Source: Promethearchaeota archaeon
GTDB lineage: Archaea > Asgardarchaeota > Lokiarchaeia > Sigyniarchaeales > SOKP01
DNA length: 36,841 nucleotides
Direction: 5' to 3'
NCBI GenBank assembly: GCA_019058015.1
Contig: JAHLWH010000107.1
Location: 1-36,841 of the forward strand
Positions 6,174 through 29,386 of this stretch are shown here, in pieces. The position numbers were made by a program, and so were the translations under genes. Under the pieces are notes generated by a model. That model made no database searches and was not told where the DNA came from. It worked only from the letters and a program-made list of their open reading frames with translations. Position 1 is the stretch's first letter. Every line of letters starts with the position of its first letter.

Positions 6174-7097
6174 TTGATTAGGTCTGAAATTAAAGAAATG
6201 ATACAAGATTTAAAAAAAAATAATACTTCTGGTGCAAATGAACTAATAGATGATGCTTATGAAATAATAAAAAGACAATTGGAACTGATATCGGATCCAA
6301 ATAAAGATATTAAAGAACTTATAATTGAGCTTTCAAAAAAGATTATTGAATCTCGCCCTAGTATGGCGACACTTATCAATTTTATCGGGTACTTTATTCA
6401 CGATTTAGAAACCTTTACTAAAAAAGCTCTGTTCCAAAAACTAAATAATTATTTAAAAGAAAAAAATAAGAGAAAAAAAGCCCTTGAACAAGAATTCCTT
6501 ATTTTTCTAAAAAACTTTAATAAAAAAGATATGAAAATTATGTTGATTTCTTATAGTTCAACTATCACTAATCTTCTAATCAAACTAAAGGAGTATAATT
6601 TTGAACTTTTTATCTTAGAATCAAGACCACTTCTTGAGGGACATACCGTTGCTGAAGTTTTATCATCTCATTTCAAAACAAATCTCATAATCGACGCTGC
6701 CATGGGAAAATTCATTAATCAAATTAATTTAGTCTTAGTTGGTATTGATAGTATCTTAAAAAATGGGGCAATAATAAACAAGATAGGAACGTATCCTTTA
6801 GCAAATTTAGCTAAGGGAAAAGGTATTGATGTATATGCTGTTGGTGACTCGTTTAAATATAATCTTAGAAGTCATTATGGTGAAGAGATTCTCATAGAAA
6901 GAAAACCAACACAAGAGATTTATAATAAAACGATACAAAATAAATTGTTAGAAATTCAAAATTATTATTTTGATATTACTCCTTCAAAATACATTACAGG
7001 GATAATTTCCGATTTAGGAGTATTAGAAATTCAAGAATTTTTAAATATTATAAAAGTTAATCTACCAATTGATTGGTTTAAATCTTTTTATGAATGA
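6174..7097 (+). CDS. eIF-2B alpha/beta/delta family (IF-2B) protein
   Basis: SGANEL, RPSMA, SYSST, ESRPLLEG, VLVGIDSI..NG.IINKIGT, FDITP..YITGIISDLG. Confidence 0.92.
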   Translation: MIRSEIKEMIQDLKKNNTSGANELIDDAYEIIKRQLELISDPNKDIKELIIELSKKIIESRPSMATLINFIGYFIHDLETFTKKALFQKLNNYLKEKNKRKKALEQEFLIFLKNFNKKDMKIMLISYSSTITNLLIKLKEYNFELFILESRPLLEGHTVAEVLSSHFKTNLIIDAAMGKFINQINLVLVGIDSILKNGAIINKIGTYPLANLAKGKGIDVYAVGDSFKYNLRSHYGEEILIERKPTQEIYNKTIQNKLLEIQNYYFDITPSKYITGIISDLGVLEIQEFLNIIKVNLPIDWFKSFYE

Positions 7098-7155
7098 TAT
7101 TTTTTTAATATTCCTTTAAATAAATCGTAATTAATATTTATTAATTCTTAGAATT

Positions 7156-7167
7156 AAGCTTAAATAA
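7156..7167 (+). promoter_or_regulatory. Putative TATA-box region (AAGCTTAAATAA) for the UGA-containing operon
   Basis: The same 12-mer recurs at 8049-8060 upstream of the 8109 gene. Matches the archaeal TTAAATA-type box. Confidence 0.4.
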
Positions 7168-7234
7168 TAACCATAATACTTTTTTAGGTGTAATAAAAAA
7201 TGAAATCAATAGAAATTTAAATTTTATAAAACAA

Positions 7235-7242
7235 AGGAGGTG
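7235..7242 (+). promoter_or_regulatory. Strong Shine-Dalgarno AGGAGGTG
   Basis: 4 nt upstream of ATG 7247. Confidence 0.75.
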
Positions 7243-7246
7243 TAAT

Positions 7247-7669
7247 ATGAGGCAAAGGGGTATTGTTGGTATTTTAGGTTCAGTTGTCGCAATAGTTATT
7301 ATTTTATCAGTTGTTGCTTTTATAATGTTTACTCCTTGAAACTGTGAAATTAATATAATAAGTCCTAGATATTCAGAAGTTTGGGATGAGTTAGGAGATT
7401 ATACAATAATATGGGAAGCATCTGATTCAATTGAAAATGTTAAGATCGAACTCTATAGAGGAAACGATTTTATATTAATAATTTCAAGTAAAACCATTAA
7501 TAATGGTCAATTAAATTTTACGATTAACGAAAGTAATGCGGAATTTCTTAGTGGTCTTAATTTTAGGGTAAAAATAGCCGATTTTAATAATGAAAATAAT
7601 TATGCATTTAGCGATTATTTTACGATTAACATCAAATCTGATAATGGCAATGGTGGTGGATGAGGTTAA
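7247..7669 (+). CDS. Candidate selenoprotein (140 aa, Sec31 and Sec139): N-terminal TM anchor, U-x-C, Kre9/KNH-like Ig-fold domain, C-terminal GGGUG
   Basis: Manual translation: MRQRGIVGILGSVVAIVIILSVVAFIMFTP-U-NCEINIISPRYSEVWDELGDYTIIWEASDSIENVKIELYRGNDFILIISSKTINNGQLNFTINESNAEFLSGLNFRVKIADFNNENNYAFSDYFTINIKSDNGNGGG-U-G*. TGA at 7337-7339 and 7661-7663, TAA at 7667-7669. Strong SD upstream, SECIS-like hairpin downstream. Absent from the ORF track. Confidence 0.8.
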
Positions 7670-7671
7670 AC

Positions 7672-7803
7672 ATGACAAGAAAAAAAATAATTATTATAAG
7701 TTCTGTTATTACCGTCATAGTTTTAATCTATTTAATTCTTAGATTTACAATTTTTACTGAAGGCGGTTTAATTTGATGGTTTAGAGAAATATTCAATTTG
7801 TAA
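7672..7803 (+). CDS. Candidate 43-aa single-pass membrane selenopeptide (Sec35)
   Basis: MTRKKIIIISSVITVIVLIYLILRFTIFTEGGLI-U-WFREIFNL*. GAGGT SD at 7662-7666, ATG 2 nt after the previous stop, TGA at 7774-7776, TAA at 7801-7803. Confidence 0.6.
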
Positions 7804-7807
7804 AAAA

Positions 7808-7883
7808 AACCCAAGATTTAAATGATGAATATTCAAAAATTGTAGGAATATTCGGATCGGAGTGCAACTCCCTTCTCTTGGTT
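7808..7883 (+). ncRNA. Eukaryote-type SECIS element (cis-acting 3'UTR hairpin)
   Basis: Helix I CCAAGA(7811-16)/TCTTGG(7876-81). AUGA at 7822-25. Quartet UGAU/GGAU. Helix II GAATATTC(7827-34)/GAATATTC(7846-53). Apical loop AAAAATTGTAG. GA at 7855-56. Extra hairpin GGAGT-GCA-ACTCC (7859-71) in the internal loop. Confidence 0.8.
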
Positions 7884-8108
7884 ATTAAATTTTTTAAAAA
7901 AAAAGATTTCTTTCAAATAAGCAACACAAGTACAAAAATTAAGTAATATCATAATAGAAATATTTCATTTTTAGCTTTTTAATAATATTTAGATAAAATT
8001 TTATATCGTAAACTTTTATTCTATTTTAAAATCAGTGAAATTTGTAAAAAGCTTAAATAAATTATTAAAATTTATAATAATGGATAATTTTAAATAAGTG
8101 ATTTCCAA

Positions 8109-9149: not shown

Positions 9150-10196
9150 TTAATTATTTTTTTTGCCTTTTTTCAAAGATTTTTTAATTCTTTGCTTTTC
9201 TTTTTCTCTTACTTCATGTTCTTTCTCTTTAAGTTCTTTTTCTTTTAATTCCAACTCTGATTGGGATAATTCTCTTTCTTTTTCAACTAATTCTTTTTTC
9301 TTTTCTAATAGTTCTTCCTTTACTTCTAAACTCTTTTCTTCTAATTGTTTTTCTTTTTCTACTACTTCTAATTCTTTTTCTTTTAATTCAAGTTCTTTTT
9401 CTTTTAATTCACGTTCTTTATCTGCAAGAATTTTTTCTTTTTGTTCTAATTCTTCATCTATTACTTTGTCCTTTAAAGCCTTCTCTTTATCCTCTAATTC
9501 TTTTTCCTTAAATTCTAGTTCTTCTTTTTTAATTTCAATTTCTCGTTCTTCCAATTCTTTTTCTTTTACGGCCAATTCTCTTTTTTCTATCTCTTTTTCT
9601 TCTAAATCTTTAATAGAGGTAAGAGATTTTAAGACATTATCGCATTTTTCCTTAAAATTATCATCTGCTTGTTTACAAGATTCTAAAATTACTTCTTCTA
9701 AATTAATGGGGCTATTTTTTCCAATAGATTTTAGTGCTTGAATAGCCTTGGTATGAACAAATTCTTGCTCATCAGAAAGTTTTTCAAGAATTAATTTAAT
9801 TAAATCTTTATCTTCGATTTTATATACCTTAGCAATGAAGTTTATTAATTGAAGCATTCCTTCCTTTACATTTGGATCTTCAGATTTTAATAATTCCTTA
9901 GCGAAGGGTAAAATAATTTCATATTCCATTTCACATATTGGTTTTAAGGCTAACACAAAAGCATATCTTAGAACGTCGTCTTTTATCGCTAAGTTTTTAA
10001 GCAACTTAGGGATTATTGTTCTTATAACAACAGCTCCTTTCTTTGCAATATGGGAAAGTTTTTTAATTAAAATCTCCAGACGATTAATATAATCCTCGTG
10101 TTCAAAGTTTAGATATTCATATATCGCTTCTACAGCACTTTGGAATTTTTCTTCTTCAATTAATTGGAGTATATTTTCAAATATTTCGTTAGACAT
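9150..10196 (-). CDS. HEAT-repeat protein with a long E/K-rich coiled-coil tail
   Basis: Repeats such as LLKSEDPNVKEGMLQLI and KLSDEQEFVHTKAIQAL. C-terminal about 150 aa consist of KEKELEE-like heptads. Confidence 0.8.
   Translation of the reverse strand: MSNEIFENILQLIEEEKFQSAVEAIYEYLNFEHEDYINRLEILIKKLSHIAKKGAVVIRTIIPKLLKNLAIKDDVLRYAFVLALKPICEMEYEIILPFAKELLKSEDPNVKEGMLQLINFIAKVYKIEDKDLIKLILEKLSDEQEFVHTKAIQALKSIGKNSPINLEEVILESCKQADDNFKEKCDNVLKSLTSIKDLEEKEIEKRELAVKEKELEEREIEIKKEELEFKEKELEDKEKALKDKVIDEELEQKEKILADKERELKEKELELKEKELEVVEKEKQLEEKSLEVKEELLEKKKELVEKERELSQSELELKEKELKEKEHEVREKEKQRIKKSLKKGKKNN
9175..9605 (-). repeat. Degenerate 21-nt/7-aa coding repeat (KEKELE[E/L])
   Basis: Recurring TTCTTTTTCTTTTAAT-like units on the + strand. 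Confidence 0.6.
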
Positions 10197-11344: not shown

Positions 11345-12769
11345 TTGCTACGGCAAATTTATATTATTTATGATAAAAAAATAATTTTTAGTTATTCTTA
11401 TGCATTAGCTTTTAATAATGAGCAATTTAAAAATGTTCAAGACCTATTAAATGAATTTATTGATTTACCAATACCAAATCAGTTTTTTCATCGCCCTTTT
11501 GGAAATTATCAATTGTTTTACATTACAAGAAATAAAATTTTCTATTTAATTATTGCCGATCTTGTTGATAAAAGAGACTATATTAATGAAATTTTAAATA
11601 AAATTACTAAAAGATTTCAAAATTTATTTCCCAATTCTTTAGAGATTAAAGAAAAAAATAAAGAAAAAAATGAATTTATTGAGTTTTTGAAAGATATTCA
11701 TTATGAACTTCATTCAAAGATCGCACTAATAGGACCTTATGGTTCAGGAAAAACAACAATTGCAAATCTTTTAAAATTAAATTTGGAACCAAAAATATTT
11801 ATGAATTTTGCAAAATCTTATAAAATAAGTATTGAAAACTTATATTTTGATTTATGGGACTTCCAATTGGAAGACAATTTTTCACCATTATGGAATAAAT
11901 TTTTAAGTGGTAGTGATTTAATTTTGCTGGTTTTTGACTCTACAAATCATAAAACCAAAACATTGACACATTTTATTAATCTTCAAAAAACCGATGCAAA
12001 ATTTTCAAAACTTATAATATTTGCAAATAAACAAGATTTATCGGAAGCGATAGAAGCTAAACAAATAGAAAAGGAATTTAATTTTCCAGTATTTGGTATT
12101 TCACTTAAAGACTTTGAAATTAAGAATAAATTAATAAAAATTATCTCAAATGAATTAAAGATAAAAAAAGAATTTCCATCAGAATTTGATGATTTATTAA
12201 AAAAAGCAGAAAATGAAGTTATTAATAAAAATTATTCGGAAGCGATTAAACATTTTAATTATTTAAAAAATATTTGCAAAAAGTTTCAAGAATTTATACA
12301 TTTATCTTCTATCGAGCAAAAAATTAGTGAAATCGAAAAATTAATCGAAAAAGAAAAAAAAGAAAAAGAAGTAGAGAAATTTAAGGTTAAAGCTCCTGAA
12401 AAAATTTCATTTTCTCAAAAAGTTTCGGTAAAACCTCTTCCTCCTCAAGATAAAACAACTAAAATAATAACTTCAGAAGAAAAGCCAATTAAAGAAATTG
12501 AAAAAAAGACAAGAAAACAGTTTTTAAAACCACAAGATATTAAGGTTAATCTGGATGCGGTTAAAGAAGATTCAATTATAAAAACTTCATTTGATACGTT
12601 AGAGAGTGAACTATTTTATTTAATAAAAGAAAAACAAGGAATCATAAGTTTAAAATTATGTAAAACTTATGTTGATAGACTACAGAATAAATTGGAACGA
12701 CCATTAACTTCAGTTGATCTTCATAAAGCCGCAGAAATATATTTAAAGAAAAAAAAAATCATCCATTAA
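11345..12769 (+). CDS. Longin-like domain + Arf/Ras-like small GTPase + helical (TPR/MIT-like) fusion
   Basis: N-terminal LRQIYII...IFYLIIAD (longin/sigma-adaptin-like), G1 GPYGSGKTT, G3 WDFQ, G4 NKQD, G5 ISLK. Confidence 0.88.
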   Translation: MLRQIYIIYDKKIIFSYSYALAFNNEQFKNVQDLLNEFIDLPIPNQFFHRPFGNYQLFYITRNKIFYLIIADLVDKRDYINEILNKITKRFQNLFPNSLEIKEKNKEKNEFIEFLKDIHYELHSKIALIGPYGSGKTTIANLLKLNLEPKIFMNFAKSYKISIENLYFDLWDFQLEDNFSPLWNKFLSGSDLILLVFDSTNHKTKTLTHFINLQKTDAKFSKLIIFANKQDLSEAIEAKQIEKEFNFPVFGISLKDFEIKNKLIKIISNELKIKKEFPSEFDDLLKKAENEVINKNYSEAIKHFNYLKNICKKFQEFIHLSSIEQKISEIEKLIEKEKKEKEVEKFKVKAPEKISFSQKVSVKPLPPQDKTTKIITSEEKPIKEIEKKTRKQFLKPQDIKVNLDAVKEDSIIKTSFDTLESELFYLIKEKQGIISLKLCKTYVDRLQNKLERPLTSVDLHKAAEIYLKKKKIIH

Positions 12770-25363: not shown

Positions 25364-28300
25364 ATGGTAATACAAGTGAATATCAAAAAATCAAAATTGG
25401 AATGTATCTTTTTGGTCATAATTTTAACATTTTTAATTTTGAATTCTTTGATAATAACTCCTAACAATTTAACTTTTCAAAATAATGAGAATTCTCTTGA
25501 TTCTCCAATTAAATATAAAAAGGATAATCCGACAATGTCTCAAACCGATTTGGACAATCCAATTTATGGAGATGGATTAAATCAAACGGTAAGAGCATAT
25601 ATGAAAAATATCTCGACCTCAATAATGACTAATGGTTCTTTTAATATCACTGCACCTAATTTAAACTCGAAATTGACAGCTGGTGAATTTAATTTCACAT
25701 TTGATCGAAATTATAATACTACATATGAAATCGAAGATGATTCTGTATATGATTATCCAATTATTAAATTTCCGTTTGATAATGCAACAGAGAATTTAAT
25801 TAGTGGTAACAACATTTCGGGTGGGATAGCGGAGATTACAGATGATAATCCTTCATCATATTGGAAAATAAATTCTACATCTTCTCCTGGTGTTATTAAT
25901 TTTACAATTACTGCCAATTTTTCCAGTTCAAAAGATTTATTCTCTTTTAATTATTATAATATTAGTAGAATTGATGTAGATTTTACAATTAACTTAACAA
26001 AAGATGTTTATCTAACTGTTAAAATTTGGGATAGACTTGAGGATATATGGAATAATATCTCGTCAGATATCTTTATAAATAGTTCAGATTTAAATGAAAA
26101 GACAATAAATCTGGACATAATTAATAAAAATTTGAGATATATAAACTCTACAGGATATAGTATTTTTCAATTTTACTTTAGAAATACTATGGATAGTTTC
26201 AATTTGAGTTTTTATGAATTCGACGCTTTTGCTTCTTCAGTTTATGAATTACCAATCACCAACATGACTTATGTTGCATTAGAATTTGATTTAAGAGGAA
26301 ATGCAACCATAAATGGTTTTCAAACATGGATAAGATCTTTAAATTTATCAGCAGCCAATAATTCAAAATTAGTTATTTCACTTTATCGAGCAAATGCTAC
26401 AGTCCTAAGAAGCCAAATAAACGATGATTCTTCCCCAGCGGAAAATATTTTAATTAAACCAGAAATTTTTATTGATTCTATTGAAATATTGAATTATACT
26501 AATGATTCAATAGTAAATTTTAGTTTTACTACACCGATAACAAATCTTAATGTAAGTAATTATTTTTTTGTAATAAAATCAAACATTAGCACGGACGCCT
26601 TTCATTTAATGATTTTACCACAGACGGCTCCACCACCTCAAGGTTTTGATCCTGATCAGAAAAATAATCATTTATTACTTAAAACCGAAACCGATGGCTC
26701 TTCTTGGGTAAAATGTCAAGAGTTAACTTATGGACAGTTTGATGCAAGTCCTTTTATTATTAATGTAACCCGTGGATGGATACCTAATGATATTTTAAAT
26801 ATAACTATAGAAAATAAAACATTATCAAACATGGAAATTAGCATCTATCCATATAATCAATCTTCAACATACATTTGGGGTTTAGGACAATGGATAGGAG
26901 AATTTGAAGAACCAATAAATACATCAAAAGGTGCAAAATTTGAAGTTGTTTTGAATTGGAATAAAAATATTACATCTCACCTATTTTTTAGTGTTTCGTA
27001 CTCTGTAACAGCTTATTCATTAGAAACTGCTACTGCACATTATAACTGCACGTATGACGATCTTCCAAAATGGGAGTTGAACTATACATTTAATAATGAA
27101 AGGAGCTATTTCATCACTAATTGGTCGTTTTTGGAATTTTGGTATATATATCCTTCATATTGGACACCATATGATTTAATCTGTGCAGATTATAAATCAA
27201 AATATGATGTAAATTCTTCAGGCACATTAATTGAAAATGGTTCCTTCGGTAAATATGTTGTTCAAAATAATACAATTATCAATACCACAAATCCAAATCA
27301 TAGTGGGAATTATTCTCTAAAATTAACCAGTTTTAATTGTATTTACAATATGACATCTTATTTAAATTTTAATGATTCATATTATTGGCCAACTAATGGT
27401 TTTATGTTGGGTGATAATGTCTCAATAAGTCTAAATGTTCAAGATCATGATGTGAAACCAGTTTCTGATGGAATTGCCAATGCAAGTTTATTTTTACCGA
27501 ATGGTACAAAATTAATTAATTGGAACCTTTCGGATTCTAAAGGAGTAATTGATAATACTTTTGATGTTACAACTTATAATTTCGATAATTCGAATATTTT
27601 TAATTCGACCTTTTCAAACAAAAAAGGTTCTTACACAATTGGTTTCTTTTGGGAAAATGGAACTGCAATAGGCTACAAGAAAAAAACTTTCTATTTATCA
27701 GATTATGACTTTAATATAATTGATTGCACATATGATAAAGAGGAAGGAGGAAATATTTTTGAGGGAAATCTAATTAGGGCTGACACTGACTTAACTAATT
27801 ACTCTCTATTAATTGCAACTGTTAATGAATCAAAGAACATTAATACATTTACAATTAATAATACAATCTCTGAACATTTTTCAAATGATGATAATTTGAT
27901 TGTAGAAATTACTAATTTCCTTCAAAATGAAACGATCATAAGCCCAGGTGAAGATATTTCTTTTAAGATTAATGTAAAAAATAAAGATTTATATTTTCCT
28001 TTTAATGTAAGATTGTCTATTCAATTAGTTTCACCCATTAATCTAAATTGGATTATGACTGAAGTAAATACTCCTAATCAATTATTAAATTTTACAGGAA
28101 CACCTAATGATTCATTTGAATTTAATTATAACATAACTTTTATTAATAAAAATCCAGATGGGACATGGTACGGAATAAATTCACCTATTAGACTTGGTGG
28201 TTGTCAAACAAAAGTTAAAGTATTTATTGAAAATGAATTTTGTGGTTCTTGGATAAATAATGATTATTCAATTATAATAAATGATAATGAAACTGTTTTT

Positions 28301-29386
28301 GAAGGGGAGATTCTTTCTTTTAAATACTTAGAAGATTTAACATCAAGAGGGTTAGCCCTCAATTTTAATAGAGATGAATTTAATATGCCAGGAATTACGT
28401 CTTTTTTCATGAATATAATAGATGAATACTACATGAGTACATTTAATCAAATTAATGAATCATTCTCGTTTAAACTTGATAGCAGTTTTAAAAACTTATC
28501 AGTTAATCCTAGTGAAATTACTTGGAGTAATAAATTTAATTTAACAGCATATTTACAAACGGAGAATGCACAACCTCTAGAGGATAAGGAAATTAACTAT
28601 TACTTCTTAAACTCTAACAATGAATGGCAAGAACTTTTAGGACCCGATGGAGATAATTATGATAGTACAGATATAAATGGAAGGACAATTGTTGAGGTAG
28701 ATTCAAATCAATTCTTGAAAAATTCATCTGGAAAAATTAAATTGAATTGGACAGGAAATCCATATATATTATCTTCTGAAATTAATTATTCTTTTAATTT
28801 TATTATTTTTTCAAACGAAATTGTTGTAGAATTTTCGACAAATAATACAATATTTTTGCGAAATAAAGAAAATCAGATAAATATTAAAATAAAAAATGTT
28901 GGTACGTCTATACTTACAGATATTAACATTACATTAATATCAAAATTTTCCTATTCAATATCCAAATACAATAATTATGAATTAAATTATCTCGAACCAC
29001 AAGAAACTACTGAAATATCCTATAAAATTTTTATTCCTAATATAGAAGATAATAATATTACTATTTTAAGCAATATTTCTTTTAATACTTTACAAACTAA
29101 TGAAAAAGATGAATTACAATTTTTTCTTACATATGATTTAGATAGTGAATCTCCCTTTACTCAGATTATACAATTATCAATATTATTTCTTTTTATTGGT
29201 ATTAGCTTGTTTTATGTATTAGCTCTCTTATATAGAATAAGAATAAACAAAAAGATAGAAGAAATTTTTGAAAAACCTCCTGAAAGAAAAAGGAAGGGTA
29301 AATATGTGAAAGTTTCTGAATTACGAGCAAAAGAAATAGAGAAAAAAGATTTAGATGAGCTTCTTAAAGAAGAAAAGATAAAATGA
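25364..29386 (+). CDS. Large secreted, membrane-anchored surface glycoprotein (1340 aa)
   Basis: N-terminal hydrophobic signal, dozens of N-x-S/T sequons, Ig/CARDB-like C-terminal segment (IKIKNVG...L.PQE), C-terminal TM and a charged tail. Confidence 0.85.
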   Translation: MVIQVNIKKSKLECIFLVIILTFLILNSLIITPNNLTFQNNENSLDSPIKYKKDNPTMSQTDLDNPIYGDGLNQTVRAYMKNISTSIMTNGSFNITAPNLNSKLTAGEFNFTFDRNYNTTYEIEDDSVYDYPIIKFPFDNATENLISGNNISGGIAEITDDNPSSYWKINSTSSPGVINFTITANFSSSKDLFSFNYYNISRIDVDFTINLTKDVYLTVKIWDRLEDIWNNISSDIFINSSDLNEKTINLDIINKNLRYINSTGYSIFQFYFRNTMDSFNLSFYEFDAFASSVYELPITNMTYVALEFDLRGNATINGFQTWIRSLNLSAANNSKLVISLYRANATVLRSQINDDSSPAENILIKPEIFIDSIEILNYTNDSIVNFSFTTPITNLNVSNYFFVIKSNISTDAFHLMILPQTAPPPQGFDPDQKNNHLLLKTETDGSSWVKCQELTYGQFDASPFIINVTRGWIPNDILNITIENKTLSNMEISIYPYNQSSTYIWGLGQWIGEFEEPINTSKGAKFEVVLNWNKNITSHLFFSVSYSVTAYSLETATAHYNCTYDDLPKWELNYTFNNERSYFITNWSFLEFWYIYPSYWTPYDLICADYKSKYDVNSSGTLIENGSFGKYVVQNNTIINTTNPNHSGNYSLKLTSFNCIYNMTSYLNFNDSYYWPTNGFMLGDNVSISLNVQDHDVKPVSDGIANASLFLPNGTKLINWNLSDSKGVIDNTFDVTTYNFDNSNIFNSTFSNKKGSYTIGFFWENGTAIGYKKKTFYLSDYDFNIIDCTYDKEEGGNIFEGNLIRADTDLTNYSLLIATVNESKNINTFTINNTISEHFSNDDNLIVEITNFLQNETIISPGEDISFKINVKNKDLYFPFNVRLSIQLVSPINLNWIMTEVNTPNQLLNFTGTPNDSFEFNYNITFINKNPDGTWYGINSPIRLGGCQTKVKVFIENEFCGSWINNDYSIIINDNETVFEGEILSFKYLEDLTSRGLALNFNRDEFNMPGITSFFMNIIDEYYMSTFNQINESFSFKLDSSFKNLSVNPSEITWSNKFNLTAYLQTENAQPLEDKEINYYFLNSNNEWQELLGPDGDNYDSTDINGRTIVEVDSNQFLKNSSGKIKLNWTGNPYILSSEINYSFNFIIFSNEIVVEFSTNNTIFLRNKENQINIKIKNVGTSILTDINITLISKFSYSISKYNNYELNYLEPQETTEISYKIFIPNIEDNNITILSNISFNTLQTNEKDELQFFLTYDLDSESPFTQIIQLSILFLFIGISLFYVLALLYRIRINKKIEEIFEKPPERKRKGKYVKVSELRAKEIEKKDLDELLKEEKIK

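Follow-up and report, generated by a model that had tools for sequence, protein, structure and literature searches.

A probable two-gene operon for small membrane selenoproteins with one lokiSECIS in an Asgard archaeon

In Lokiarchaeia, the use of one SECIS element for two cistrons has a described precedent in the HdrA-VhuD (FrhD) gene pairs, as reported in the main texts of two studies (Mariotti et al. 2016, PMC4989117; Huang et al. 2024, PMC11227280). The lokiSECIS element is defined in the main text of the earlier study by AUGA on the 5′ side of a 9-bp stem, GA (AA in VhuU) on its 3′ side, and an 11-nt apical loop in which the first five nucleotides are A and the last is G, usually after A (Mariotti 2016, PMC4989117). 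According to the same text, the element is sited close 3′ of the coding sequence, and the published archaeal, eukaryotic and bacterial SECIS models miss it. For Asgard archaea, published surveys count 7 selenoprotein families, and for the archaea as a whole 11. The Asgard survey was homology-based, most of the families are redox enzymes, and a 2024 survey reported that it had found no eukaryote-type selenoprotein family in Asgard archaea.

Eukaryotic SELENOK and SELENOS form a family that is defined by architecture rather than by sequence (PMC10650576, section 2.6). As set out in that section, its members carry a single N-terminal transmembrane (TM) helix, a segment rich in Gly, Pro and positive charges, and Sec at the second or third position from the C-terminus, and they have type III topology.

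The locus described here lies in a stretch of 36,841 nt (contig JAHLWH010000107.1), which is called the window below. The genome is an Asgard (Promethearchaeota) MAG, the type of host assumed in a preliminary description of this DNA, and every coordinate which that description had given for the start codons, the three TGA codons and the TAA stops was confirmed on the sequence. All features are on the forward strand. Gene 1 (P0001, 140 residues; 7247-7669) runs from an ATG at 7247 to a TAA at 7667-7669, and a Shine-Dalgarno-like AGGAGGTG (7235-7242), presumably functional, ends 4 nt 5′ of its start. The frame is interrupted by UGA-1 at codon 31 (7337-7339) and by UGA-2 at codon 139 (7661-7663). 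Gene 2 (P0002, 43 residues; 7672-7803) begins with an ATG at 7672, leaving a spacing of 2 nt from the gene 1 stop, contains UGA-3 at codon 35 (7774-7776), and ends with a TAA at 7801-7803. The Shine-Dalgarno-like GAGGT 5′ of this second start (7662-7666) overlaps UGA-2, and we propose that gene 2 is translationally coupled to gene 1.

Read through its UGA codons, P0001 comprises a TM helix (residues 7-27), a Sec31-Asn-Cys33 (U-N-C) motif whose predicted Sec stands at the outer end of the helix, an Ig-like domain (residues 35-128), and a Gly-rich tail, GGG-Sec139-Gly, with a predicted penultimate Sec before the TAA. P0002 has a basic N-terminus and one TM helix, followed by EGGLI-Sec35-WFREIFNL, again with a predicted Sec, and the TAA.

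Residues 39-127 of P0001 match the Pfam family PF10342 (Kre9_KNH) with 28.5 bits against a gathering cut-off of 24.6, and the Ig-like domain can be aligned with 24 homologous domains. The AlphaFold2 model (mean pLDDT 82.7) has a helix at residues 7-27 and a β-sandwich at residues 35-128 (pLDDT 87-97), and its tail is at pLDDT <50. A PDB fold search with this model gave generic Ig/FnIII folds only and no functional lead. No in-frame start codon was found in gene 1 on the 3′ side of UGA-1; because the domain has no start codon of its own, it requires read-through of UGA31. Coding thus continues past an in-frame UGA into a Pfam-significant domain, as expected of a selenoprotein gene.

The domain resembles Kre9/KNH Ig-like surface proteins (PF10342) of the same order, with which residues 35-128 of P0001 align. 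Such domains occur singly or in tandem in many relatives, and matches were present in 24 of the 41 genomes sampled. The homologues have no in-frame TGA, except for one weak match in genome G021 (E=3.3e-5) with one TGA and two TAG codons. Two of them, on inspection, combine a signal peptide with a C-terminal anchor; unlike these proteins, P0001 is anchored at its N-terminus and has a predicted Sec on both sides of the domain. Like the domains of these homologues, the Ig-like domain of P0001 is predicted to be extracellular.

The preliminary description had placed a SECIS hairpin about 20 nt after the last stop codon. The AUGA begins 18 nt past the gene 2 TAA, and the fold, a covariance model termed R1 and the published criteria together identify the element (7810-7882) as a canonical lokiSECIS. 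AUGA (7822-7825) and GA (7855-7856) directly flank the main stem on its 5′ and 3′ sides. This stem comprises 9 bp (7826-7834 with 7846-7854), of which eight are Watson-Crick pairs and one is U-G. The apical loop of 11 nt (7835-7845), AAAAAUUGUAG, has five leading A residues and a terminal AG. Below the core there is a lower helix (7811-7816/7876-7881), accompanied by a side hairpin (7859-7871). The hairpin at 7822-7856 thus agrees with all the sequence, structure and position criteria in the main text of Mariotti 2016 (PMC4989117). Its folding z-score is only -2.04, a value that we counted against this reading. Just 3′ of the SECIS lies a run of T residues, TTTTTT (7889-7894), which may be an archaeal transcription terminator, to judge by the sequence.

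Model R1 was trained on five sequences, the element of this locus among them, and was restricted to a 39-nt hairpin core because a full-length MAFFT alignment of the five SECIS regions misaligned their 3′ halves. A scan of the 3.84-Mb genome returned seven sites with at least 41 bits, the next best site reaching 28 bits, a gap of 13 bits. The top match is the SECIS of this locus (52.2 bits), itself a training sequence of R1; the seven sites also include the SECIS elements of three HdrA-VhuD pairs in the same genome (46-51 bits), with which the element shares its lower helix and side hairpin. R1 found matches in 24 of 24 genomes of the same family, as against 1 of 16 genomes from three other families. 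All nine pairs of the SECIS stem covary across 30 distinct elements, and 90.4% are paired compared with 37-61% when the partner is slid. Rfam SECIS families gave no match, either at gathering scores over the whole window or at E up to 10 over 7100-8100. Such a miss is expected, since published SECIS models likewise fail on lokiSECIS according to the main text of Mariotti 2016 (PMC4989117). The combination of hairpin and ORFs goes beyond chance, given the R1 score gap and an Ig-like domain that lies 3′ of UGA-1 without a start codon. Elsewhere in the genome (C134:6018-6056) there is an orphan copy of the SECIS, with no clear ORF.

The three HdrA-VhuD pairs of this genome, each with a lokiSECIS, allow a direct comparison. 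As in those pairs, the SECIS is of the class with AUGA, a 9-bp stem, an 11-nt A-rich loop and GA, it stands just past the second of two adjacent same-strand genes, and several UGA codons are present per operon. Unlike HdrA and VhuD, which are cytosolic Fe-S/hydrogenase subunits, P0001 and P0002 are single-pass membrane proteins with Sec predicted outside, and the pair forms an accessory cassette. Neither protein matched a Pfam selenoprotein family. By analogy with HdrA-VhuD, the one SECIS would be common to both cistrons, presumably carried on a single transcript.

The locus is very probably a real bicistronic selenoprotein operon, and most of the checks suggested in the preliminary description and carried out here favoured this reading. 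We further consider it likely that this is an accessory operon encoding two small N-in single-pass membrane selenoproteins, that these share one lokiSECIS, and that they are part of a wider undescribed class. The lokiSECIS would recruit EFSec and Sec-tRNA(Sec) to the bicistronic mRNA, and all three UGAs would be decoded as selenocysteine, as has been proposed for HdrA-VhuD pairs. Gene 1 would then yield a signal-anchored protein in which Sec31-Asn-Cys33 lies at the outer face of the membrane, the Ig-like domain is extracellular and the Gly-rich tail, which ends in Gly-Gly-Gly-Sec139-Gly, is floppy; gene 2 would yield a 43-residue peptide with Sec35 in a short external tail. A role for these proteins can be suggested only tentatively, and our guess, itself somewhat doubtful, is that the outward selenol and U-x-C groups are redox-active. 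Selenenylsulfides might form on the cell surface, perhaps supplied by the CcdA/DsbD and redoxin system of the organism, and the GGG-U-G tail could serve as a mobile arm comparable to the GCUG tail of thioredoxin reductase. The mammalian enzyme carries a C-terminal Gly-Cys-Sec-Gly redox tail. Both tails have a penultimate, Gly-flanked Sec in a flexible C-terminal arm; unlike thioredoxin reductase, P0001 lacks a flavoprotein domain, its tail has no adjacent Cys, and the protein would be extracytoplasmic. The likeness is proposed as a functional analogy only.

The preliminary description had called for a check of the Sec machinery, and most of it is present. The genome contains tRNA-Sec, SepSecS (388.5 bits), SelB/EFSec (266.9 bits, above the cut-off) and a PSTK-like gene of the KTI12/PSTK family (110 bits), but SelD was not found in the assembly, which is 94.4% complete. 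A Sec-containing SelD occurs in 4 of 4 congeners. Because TGA terminates 201 of 1473 long ORFs in the genome, a genome-wide reassignment of this codon was rejected; the ORFs of the window are intact under table 11.

Judged by its sequence features, the gene pair appears to be part of a widespread class of small selenoproteins anchored in the membrane. In the preliminary description the two products had been taken as a pair of no described family. The absence of matches to described selenoprotein families bears this out, but the pair does not stand isolated, and we relate it to a broad class designated TM-GGGU(xC). In an unbiased scan, 13 of 93 SECIS elements sit 3′ of small ORFs that encode a TM segment and U. 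Members begin with a basic N-terminus that leads into a TM helix; a polar N/D/P/G linker precedes GGG-U-(x-C), after which the protein either stops or continues as a short hydrophobic tail, and a lokiSECIS lies behind each. The linkers contain Gly, Asn, Pro and Asp (for example NGNGGG and QPPPNGGG). In other genera GGG-U is followed by 15-30 in-frame codons toward the SECIS, often with a conserved Cys at +2. A profile of the family matched 92 of 151 genomes of the order and 88 of 131 genomes of the same family. An in-frame TGA is present in 85 of 103 of these matches and in all 62 of the best ones; strong matches without a TGA were not found. Wherever family loci were fetched (30 of 30), a lokiSECIS lies just downstream.

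The two proteins of the operon and a third, SECIS-linked paralogue (P0003) relate to this profile in different ways. P0002 is the best non-training match to it among 46,310 genome ORFs, although the match is weak (E=0.0076), and the N-terminus of P0001 does not match the profile. P0003, which ends in GGGUG or GGGUC, is kept in four congeners; its C-terminal TGA is its sole TGA, and the lokiSECIS is kept in 4 of 4 genomes of the genus that carry P0003. Used as a query for related loci, P0003 retrieved one congener contig. Hydrophobic stretches indicative of TM segments were found in P0002, P0003 and the relatives, and at Pfam E up to 10, P0002, P0003 and nine relatives gave only sub-threshold matches to TM segments. 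A search of the ESM Atlas with P0007 gave no usable feature match, its structural rows being unrelated TM helices for a low-confidence model. Among the neighbours of 30 family loci, no family-wide partner was found, only synteny blocks at the level of genera. Lys and Arg are more abundant before the helix than after it in 31 of 31 members (mean 3.6 versus 0.13), and by the positive-inside rule this predicts an N-in, C-out topology with Sec outside in all of them.

Human SELENOK and SELENOS proteins end in GGUG and GGUGR. When the archaeal proteins are set against the architecture given in section 2.6 of PMC10650576, both shared and divergent features emerge. Shared is the single N-terminal TM helix (residues 7-27 in the P0001 model, and the hydrophobic stretches of P0002, P0003 and the relatives). 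The unstructured Gly-rich segment corresponds in part, with Gly and Pro beside Asn and Asp. The position of Sec agrees for P0001 (U139 of 140) and P0003, but not for P0002 (U35 of 43). Unlike SELENOK/SELENOS as described there, most archaeal members have 15-30 residues after U, with U-x-C and a hydrophobic tail; their linker is without positive charges (mean K/R after the helix 0.13); P0001 has an inserted Ig-like domain; and the archaeal proteins are predicted to be N-in with Sec outside, whereas the C-terminus of SELENOK/SELENOS is cytosolic. The Pfam models SelK_SelG and Selenoprotein_S matched none of 11 proteins (P0002, P0003 and nine relatives) at thresholds up to E=10, nor P0001 at thresholds up to E=0.01. 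That the TM-GGGU(xC) proteins, this pair and P0003 among them, are archaeal counterparts, possibly ancestors, of SELENOK/SELENOS seems to us very unlikely; if they were, a eukaryote-type selenoprotein family would for the first time have been traced to Asgard archaea.

The TM-GGGU(xC) class is apparently undescribed: in the titles, abstract openings and main texts covered, small membrane selenoproteins of Asgard archaea were not found described. Among homologues from the protein library, 18 of 22 end exactly at the TGA, and some public protein records have W at the Sec position of the family. Trp homologues had been named in the preliminary description as evidence against selenocysteine, and the one W form whose DNA was checked has TGA there, followed by a lokiSECIS; in this case, the public Trp version is TGA read with table 4. 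These records suggest that gene callers systematically cut small surface-exposed selenoproteins, either by stopping at TGA or by reading Trp under table 4, and that a layer of selenoproteins has been overlooked in roughly two of every three genomes sampled from one Promethearchaeota family. If our reading holds, the archaeal selenoproteome is enlarged, Sec chemistry takes place on the cell surface in the archaea most closely related to eukaryotes, and there is a concrete testable candidate for the origin of eukaryotic SelK/SelS. With one SECIS, three UGAs and two cistrons, the locus also offers a compact natural test case.

Comparison within the genus reveals that the gene pair lies in a cassette of 920 bp (7089-8008) that is present or absent as an insertion/deletion polymorphism. 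In congener G004, which is without the cassette, about 30 bp separate the IF-2B-family gene of the flank (90% identity) from the gene on the downstream side (92%), and neither gene product was found in congener G001; the cassette is therefore dispensable. Its ends show only short AT-rich matches at about chance level in place of terminal repeats, and no mechanism of mobility can be named. Congener G002 has the cassette at 98.3% identity, compared with 95% for a 3.1-kb stretch of cassette plus flanks, and has the three TGAs and the SECIS core intact. In four other runs (X5-X8), the contigs are unchanged at each TGA that they cover, so that assembly error was rejected; the TGG or CGA codons which the preliminary description had allowed for were not seen in them. 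UGA-1 is unchanged in G002 and four runs (X5, X6, X7, X8), UGA-2 in G002 and three (X5, X6, X7), and UGA-3 in G002 and two (X5, X6); the SECIS core shows no variation in G002, X5 or X6. The expectation of TGA or Cys at these positions is borne out for TGA by G002 and the independent contigs, but a homologue with Cys at one of the three positions was found neither among the domain homologues, nor in the P0002 search, nor among the strong family matches. At U31, the linker is not conserved among the Ig-like domain homologues and does not align. Because Cys-containing homologues are lacking at the three positions, the classic Sec/Cys pairing is not seen here. P0002 as a query found no sequence homologue outside G000 and G002.

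These data bear on whether the cassette is decaying, with gene 1 the pseudogene of what was once a surface protein, TGA31 its nonsense mutation, and the SECIS either a duplicated relic or in use for gene 2 only. The variants in gene 1 (3 synonymous versus 10 non-synonymous; small numbers) are consistent with such decay, and as sequence changes they would fit relaxed or diversifying evolution as well as function; the replacements are, against decay, mostly conservative. An extra AGA-to-TGA change at codon 3 of gene 2 in G002 could signal decay, and the orphan SECIS, the want of Cys homologues, the absence of the cassette from G004 and the unseen products in G001 point the same way. We nevertheless regard decay as quite unlikely. 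No frameshift, TAA or TAG occurs within 423+132 nt in G000, G002 and the covering contigs of the four runs, the SECIS core does not vary, and the cassette is better preserved than the stretch that includes its flanks. Four of the five variable sites in gene 2 are synonymous third-position changes, found on both sides of UGA35, against one that is non-synonymous (again small numbers), and U-N-C and GGG-U-G echo motifs of the conserved family. An artefact or another code (errors of assembly at the three codons, a Trp or Gly meaning of TGA in this organism, or a chance hairpin beside chance ORFs) is almost certainly not the explanation. Open frames and hairpins do arise easily in an AT-rich genome (29% GC), and W does appear in public records of the family; but the W checked in DNA is TGA followed by a lokiSECIS, TGA is a normal stop for long ORFs here, the independent contigs agree, and 13 bits separate true-class R1 matches from background.

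A bicistronic selenoprotein operon in which only some UGAs are decoded seems to us rather unlikely. UGA139 might terminate gene 1 (…GGG), or UGA31 might be read inefficiently, in which case gene 2 and a TM peptide of 30 residues would be the main products. Past UGA139 only one Gly codon remains before the TAA, so that termination there would give an almost identical protein; UGA139 overlaps the Shine-Dalgarno-like GAGGT of gene 2, and public gene callers end family members at the GGG-U TGA. Decoding of all three UGAs is favoured by the Ig-like domain of gene 1, which is unreachable without read-through of UGA31, by P0003, in which a C-terminal TGA alone is accompanied by a lokiSECIS in every carrier genome of the genus, and by the in-frame codons that continue past GGG-U in other genera, often with Cys at +2.

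Direct reading and translation bore out exactly the sequence features of the preliminary description, namely a Shine-Dalgarno element, two ATGs, three in-frame TGAs, TAA stops and a hairpin. On the forward strand, a Shine-Dalgarno-like AGGAGGTG (7235-7242) is followed by the gene 1 ATG at 7247, which opens a frame of 140 codons that ends with TAA at 7667-7669 and is interrupted only by TGA at codons 31 (7337-7339) and 139 (7661-7663). Gene 2, on the same strand, starts 2 nt past this stop with an ATG at 7672 preceded by GAGGT; its 43 codons carry TGA at codon 35 (7774-7776) and end with TAA at 7801-7803. This anatomy, together with a lokiSECIS, conservation of the UGAs and a wider protein family, supports the earlier reading of a bicistronic selenoprotein operon in which one SECIS would serve three UGAs. 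Judged from sequence, 7247-7803 is probably a functional operon of this kind with a lokiSECIS downstream.

The hairpin begins with AUGA at 7822-7825 (forward strand), 18 nt past the gene 2 stop, and continues with a 9-bp stem, an 11-nt loop AAAAAUUGUAG and GA. In the predicted fold of the region (-18.3 kcal/mol, z = -2.04), a lower helix joins 7811-7816 to 7876-7881, and 7859-7871 forms a small side hairpin. No Rfam family matches the hairpin; existing SECIS models all likewise miss the lokiSECIS reported by Mariotti et al. (2016; PMC4989117). According to that report, a lokiSECIS consists of AUGA, a 9-bp stem, an 11-nt loop and then GA, and the loop has A at bases 1-5, G at its last base and mostly A before this G. 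The window hairpin agrees on all of these points and, on this evidence, is assigned as a lokiSECIS.

A loose pattern scan of the source assembly (G000) gave 99 raw hits, five of which have the 9-bp, 11-nt, AAAAA...G form; two of these immediately follow an HdrA-VhuD pair that contains several in-frame TGAs. A 39-nt covariance model trained on those five G000 hits, the window element included, realized the SECIS search suggested earlier and scored the window element at 52.2 bits. Seven G000 sites reached at least 41 bits and all else fell at or below 28.3 bits; the seven are the window element, three HdrA-VhuD pairs, a ~160-residue ORF with ...GCUU..., an orphan element and a 51-codon ORF (P0003). 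Among 40 relatives, the model found elements in 24/24 genomes of the same family and in 1 of 16 from three other families, which served as a rough negative control. All nine stem pairs covary across 30 distinct elements, in an alignment that had been fitted to the model.

The anticipated conservation of the UGAs is seen in the congener G002, where each of the three TGAs is retained, as is the SECIS core, in a cassette with 98.3% identity over 1011 nt. Logan contigs from four further runs (at least three other studies) carry the cassette at 95-99% identity, and no TGA differs in the contigs that cover it (four runs for the first TGA, three for the second, two for the third). When variants from G002 and the Logan contigs are pooled, gene 2 has four synonymous third-position changes and one replacement (codon 3 reads TGA for AGA, a change confined to G002), which indicates purifying selection, although the numbers are small. 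Gene 1 has three synonymous and ten mostly conservative replacement changes, with neither a stop nor a frameshift, and purifying selection is not clearly shown. The codon-3 TGA of G002 (L027/L051; homologous to window 7678) gives M-T-U-K-K, reflecting either the start of decay or tolerance of extra UGAs on a SECIS-bearing mRNA. In another congener (G004), ~30 bp separate the flanking genes (identity 90% and 92%), versus 920 bp in G000 (window 7089-8008), and the P0001 and P0002 queries detected neither product in G001. The cassette is thus dispensable.

Residues 39-127 of the gene 1 product (P0001) match Pfam Kre9_KNH (28.5 bits; cut-off 24.6) and can be aligned with 24 homologous domains of relatives. 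An AlphaFold2 model (mean pLDDT 82.7) places residues 7-27 in a helix and 35-128 in a beta-sandwich and leaves the tail disordered; the PDB matches of the model are generic Ig/FnIII folds. No ATG, GTG or TTG that could give the domain a separate start was found downstream of UGA31. Because its homologues in the lineage follow a signal peptide and precede a C-terminal membrane anchor, the domain is predicted to be extracellular. The predicted Sec31-Asn-Cys33 lies in a short linker where the helix ends on the outer side, and the predicted Sec139 within the floppy tail NGNGGG-U-G. The gene 2 product (P0002) starts with a basic N-terminus, which leads into one hydrophobic helix and the stretch EGGLI-U-WFREIFNL.

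The paralogue P0003 (MVMDQ...PPPNGGG-U-G-stop), whose near-identical SECIS lies 39 nt downstream of the ORF, ends in the same motif as gene 1. Four genomes of the genus (G000, G001, G002, G004) retain P0003 together with its TGA and SECIS, with a C-terminus of UG or UC. We classified 97 SECIS-upstream ORFs (92 from the genome scan, one linked to an additional element of a fetched locus, four from P0003-search loci) as FrhD/VhuD (37), UU-containing ORFs (21), SelD (4), small TM+U ORFs (17) and other (18, among them a few further FrhD/VhuD). The small TM+U ORFs, 13/93 in the unbiased part, have in common a basic N-terminal segment, a single helix, a polar linker of N/D/P/G and GGG-U, often with x-C, after which the protein ends or continues for 15-30 hydrophobic residues.

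A profile of 14 of these proteins, with U entered as C, matched 92 of 151 genomes of the order (88/131 in the same family). By hand count, 85 of the 103 matches have an in-frame TGA, including all 62 best, and a lokiSECIS lies just downstream on the same strand at 30/30 fetched loci, about 10 of which were training-set members. With a profile free of P0002, the P0002 ORF ranked top among non-training ORFs in a pool of 46,310 TAA/TAG-delimited G000 ORFs, albeit weakly (E=0.0076); the P0001 N-terminus was not detected.

A search of 1.84 billion representative proteins with the family profile recovered 22 proteins with E of 0.001 or lower; 18 end exactly at the G-rich motif, where TGA would stop a gene caller, and four run on with W-x-C. 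Public library entries P0005, P0007, P0008 and P0025 carry Trp at the Sec position. Trp homologues lacking a SECIS were held in the preliminary description to speak against its reading. In the entry that we checked, P0007, the DNA reads GGA ACT GGA TGA GGA TGT with a lokiSECIS behind, so its 'Trp' comes from TGA translated under table 4 and the objection does not arise. Some pipelines evidently called AT-rich contigs with a TGA=Trp table. In G000 (3.84 Mb, 283 contigs, 29% GC, completeness 94.4%), TGA closes 201/1473 frames of at least 300 codons, the remaining ORFs of the window are intact under table 11, and TGA is an ordinary stop.

Within the Sec machinery named earlier, tRNA-Sec, SepSecS (388.5 bits) and SelB/EFSec (266.9 bits, above the cut-off) were found in G000, and PSTK is represented at the level of a KTI12/PSTK-family gene (110 bits). 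SelD was not found in the assembly, either with the NCBIfam model (best 59 bits, under the cut-off) or by tblastn with a relative's SelD. Because 4/4 congeners and one other family member have SelD, in each case with one in-frame TGA, an assembly gap is the likeliest explanation. The main uncertainties are this missing gene, the relaxed constraint on gene 1 and the Cys homologues of the gene pair, which were sought and not found.

Sec recoding and the sharing of a SECIS are known, and Mariotti et al. (PMC4989117) describe HdrA-VhuD pairs backed by one single element; the two proteins are not known within the literature covered, in line with the earlier impression of no described family. The SECIS-first scan of Mariotti et al. 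lists HdrA, VhuD, VhuU and PrxL only, and Huang et al. (2024; PMC11227280) report seven families by homology in >400 Asgard genomes and no eukaryote-specific family. A 2026 review counts eleven archaeal selenoprotein families, and its main text does not contain the terms 'transmembrane', 'membrane selenoprotein' or 'SelK'. By architecture, the nearest known proteins are eukaryotic SELENOK and SELENOS, a family for which a review (PMC10650576) gives three defining features: a TM helix near the N-terminus, a disordered region that is G-rich, and Sec as the second or third residue counted from the C-terminus. We did not accept the pair as members because the archaeal proteins, in contrast, match neither of the two in Pfam, their linker lacks positive charges and their predicted topology is reversed.

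Since a K/R cluster precedes the helix in 31/31 family members (mean 3.6 versus 0.13 after), the Sec-bearing parts are predicted to face outward. A single transcript would run from a promoter upstream of 7235 to a T-run at 7889-7894. As has been proposed for HdrA-VhuD, in which some of the Sec codons are ~2 kb away from the SECIS, the lokiSECIS would enable decoding of all three UGAs by EFSec and Sec-tRNA(Sec), and both products would then show selenols on the cell surface. The recurrence of U-x-C points to selenenylsulfide redox chemistry. Genes for a membrane-anchored AhpC/TSA-type redoxin and a DsbD/CcdA-type membrane protein adjoin the orphan SECIS elsewhere in G000, and such proteins could bring reducing power outside. 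A surface redox function is a guess, and a rather doubtful one.

The window also encodes Arf/Roc/Longin-type GTPase and HEAT-repeat proteins. These eukaryote-signature-like genes are a 474-residue protein with Longin and Arf/Roc/Ras GTPase matches (11345-12769, forward) and a HEAT-repeat protein identified by domain search (9150-10196, reverse); listed with them is a 1340-residue ORF with no significant domain (25364-29386, forward).

The orphan lokiSECIS (C134:6018-6056, reverse; L006:6018-6056; 48.2 bits) has no convincing upstream ORF, is conserved in G002 (L081) and has an FrhB-like Fe-S gene on the side opposite the redoxin pair. It is near-identical to the element at C134:8538-8576 (reverse), whose upstream ORF (L041:1551-2006:-) has two adjacent in-frame TGAs. 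UU ORFs of ~150-175 residues (...GC-U-U-EKVK..., also D-U-U and U-G-U-U; L054, L057-L059, L061, L066, L090, L093, L103, L126 and others) have no Pfam match and are absent from the families named in the literature covered. Zinc-ribbon-like ORFs of ~37 residues (CxxC...CxxC; L072, L088, L094 and L122 in G013, G017, G018 and G006) have TGA as the last codon before TAA/TAG (...FKU-stop) and a lokiSECIS ~30 nt downstream; this TGA is either a C-terminal Sec codon or a stop beside a SECIS of other purpose. Further SECIS-linked frames are one for an AhpD/CMD-like protein with CKPU (L055, G020; 23.1 bits, cut-off 23), a 110-codon frame with RG-U-CG (L071, G032), an unclassified 176-residue frame with one U (L117, G024), an acidic TM protein with DDGG-U (L108, G008) and a 116-residue ORF with one U (L132, G012).
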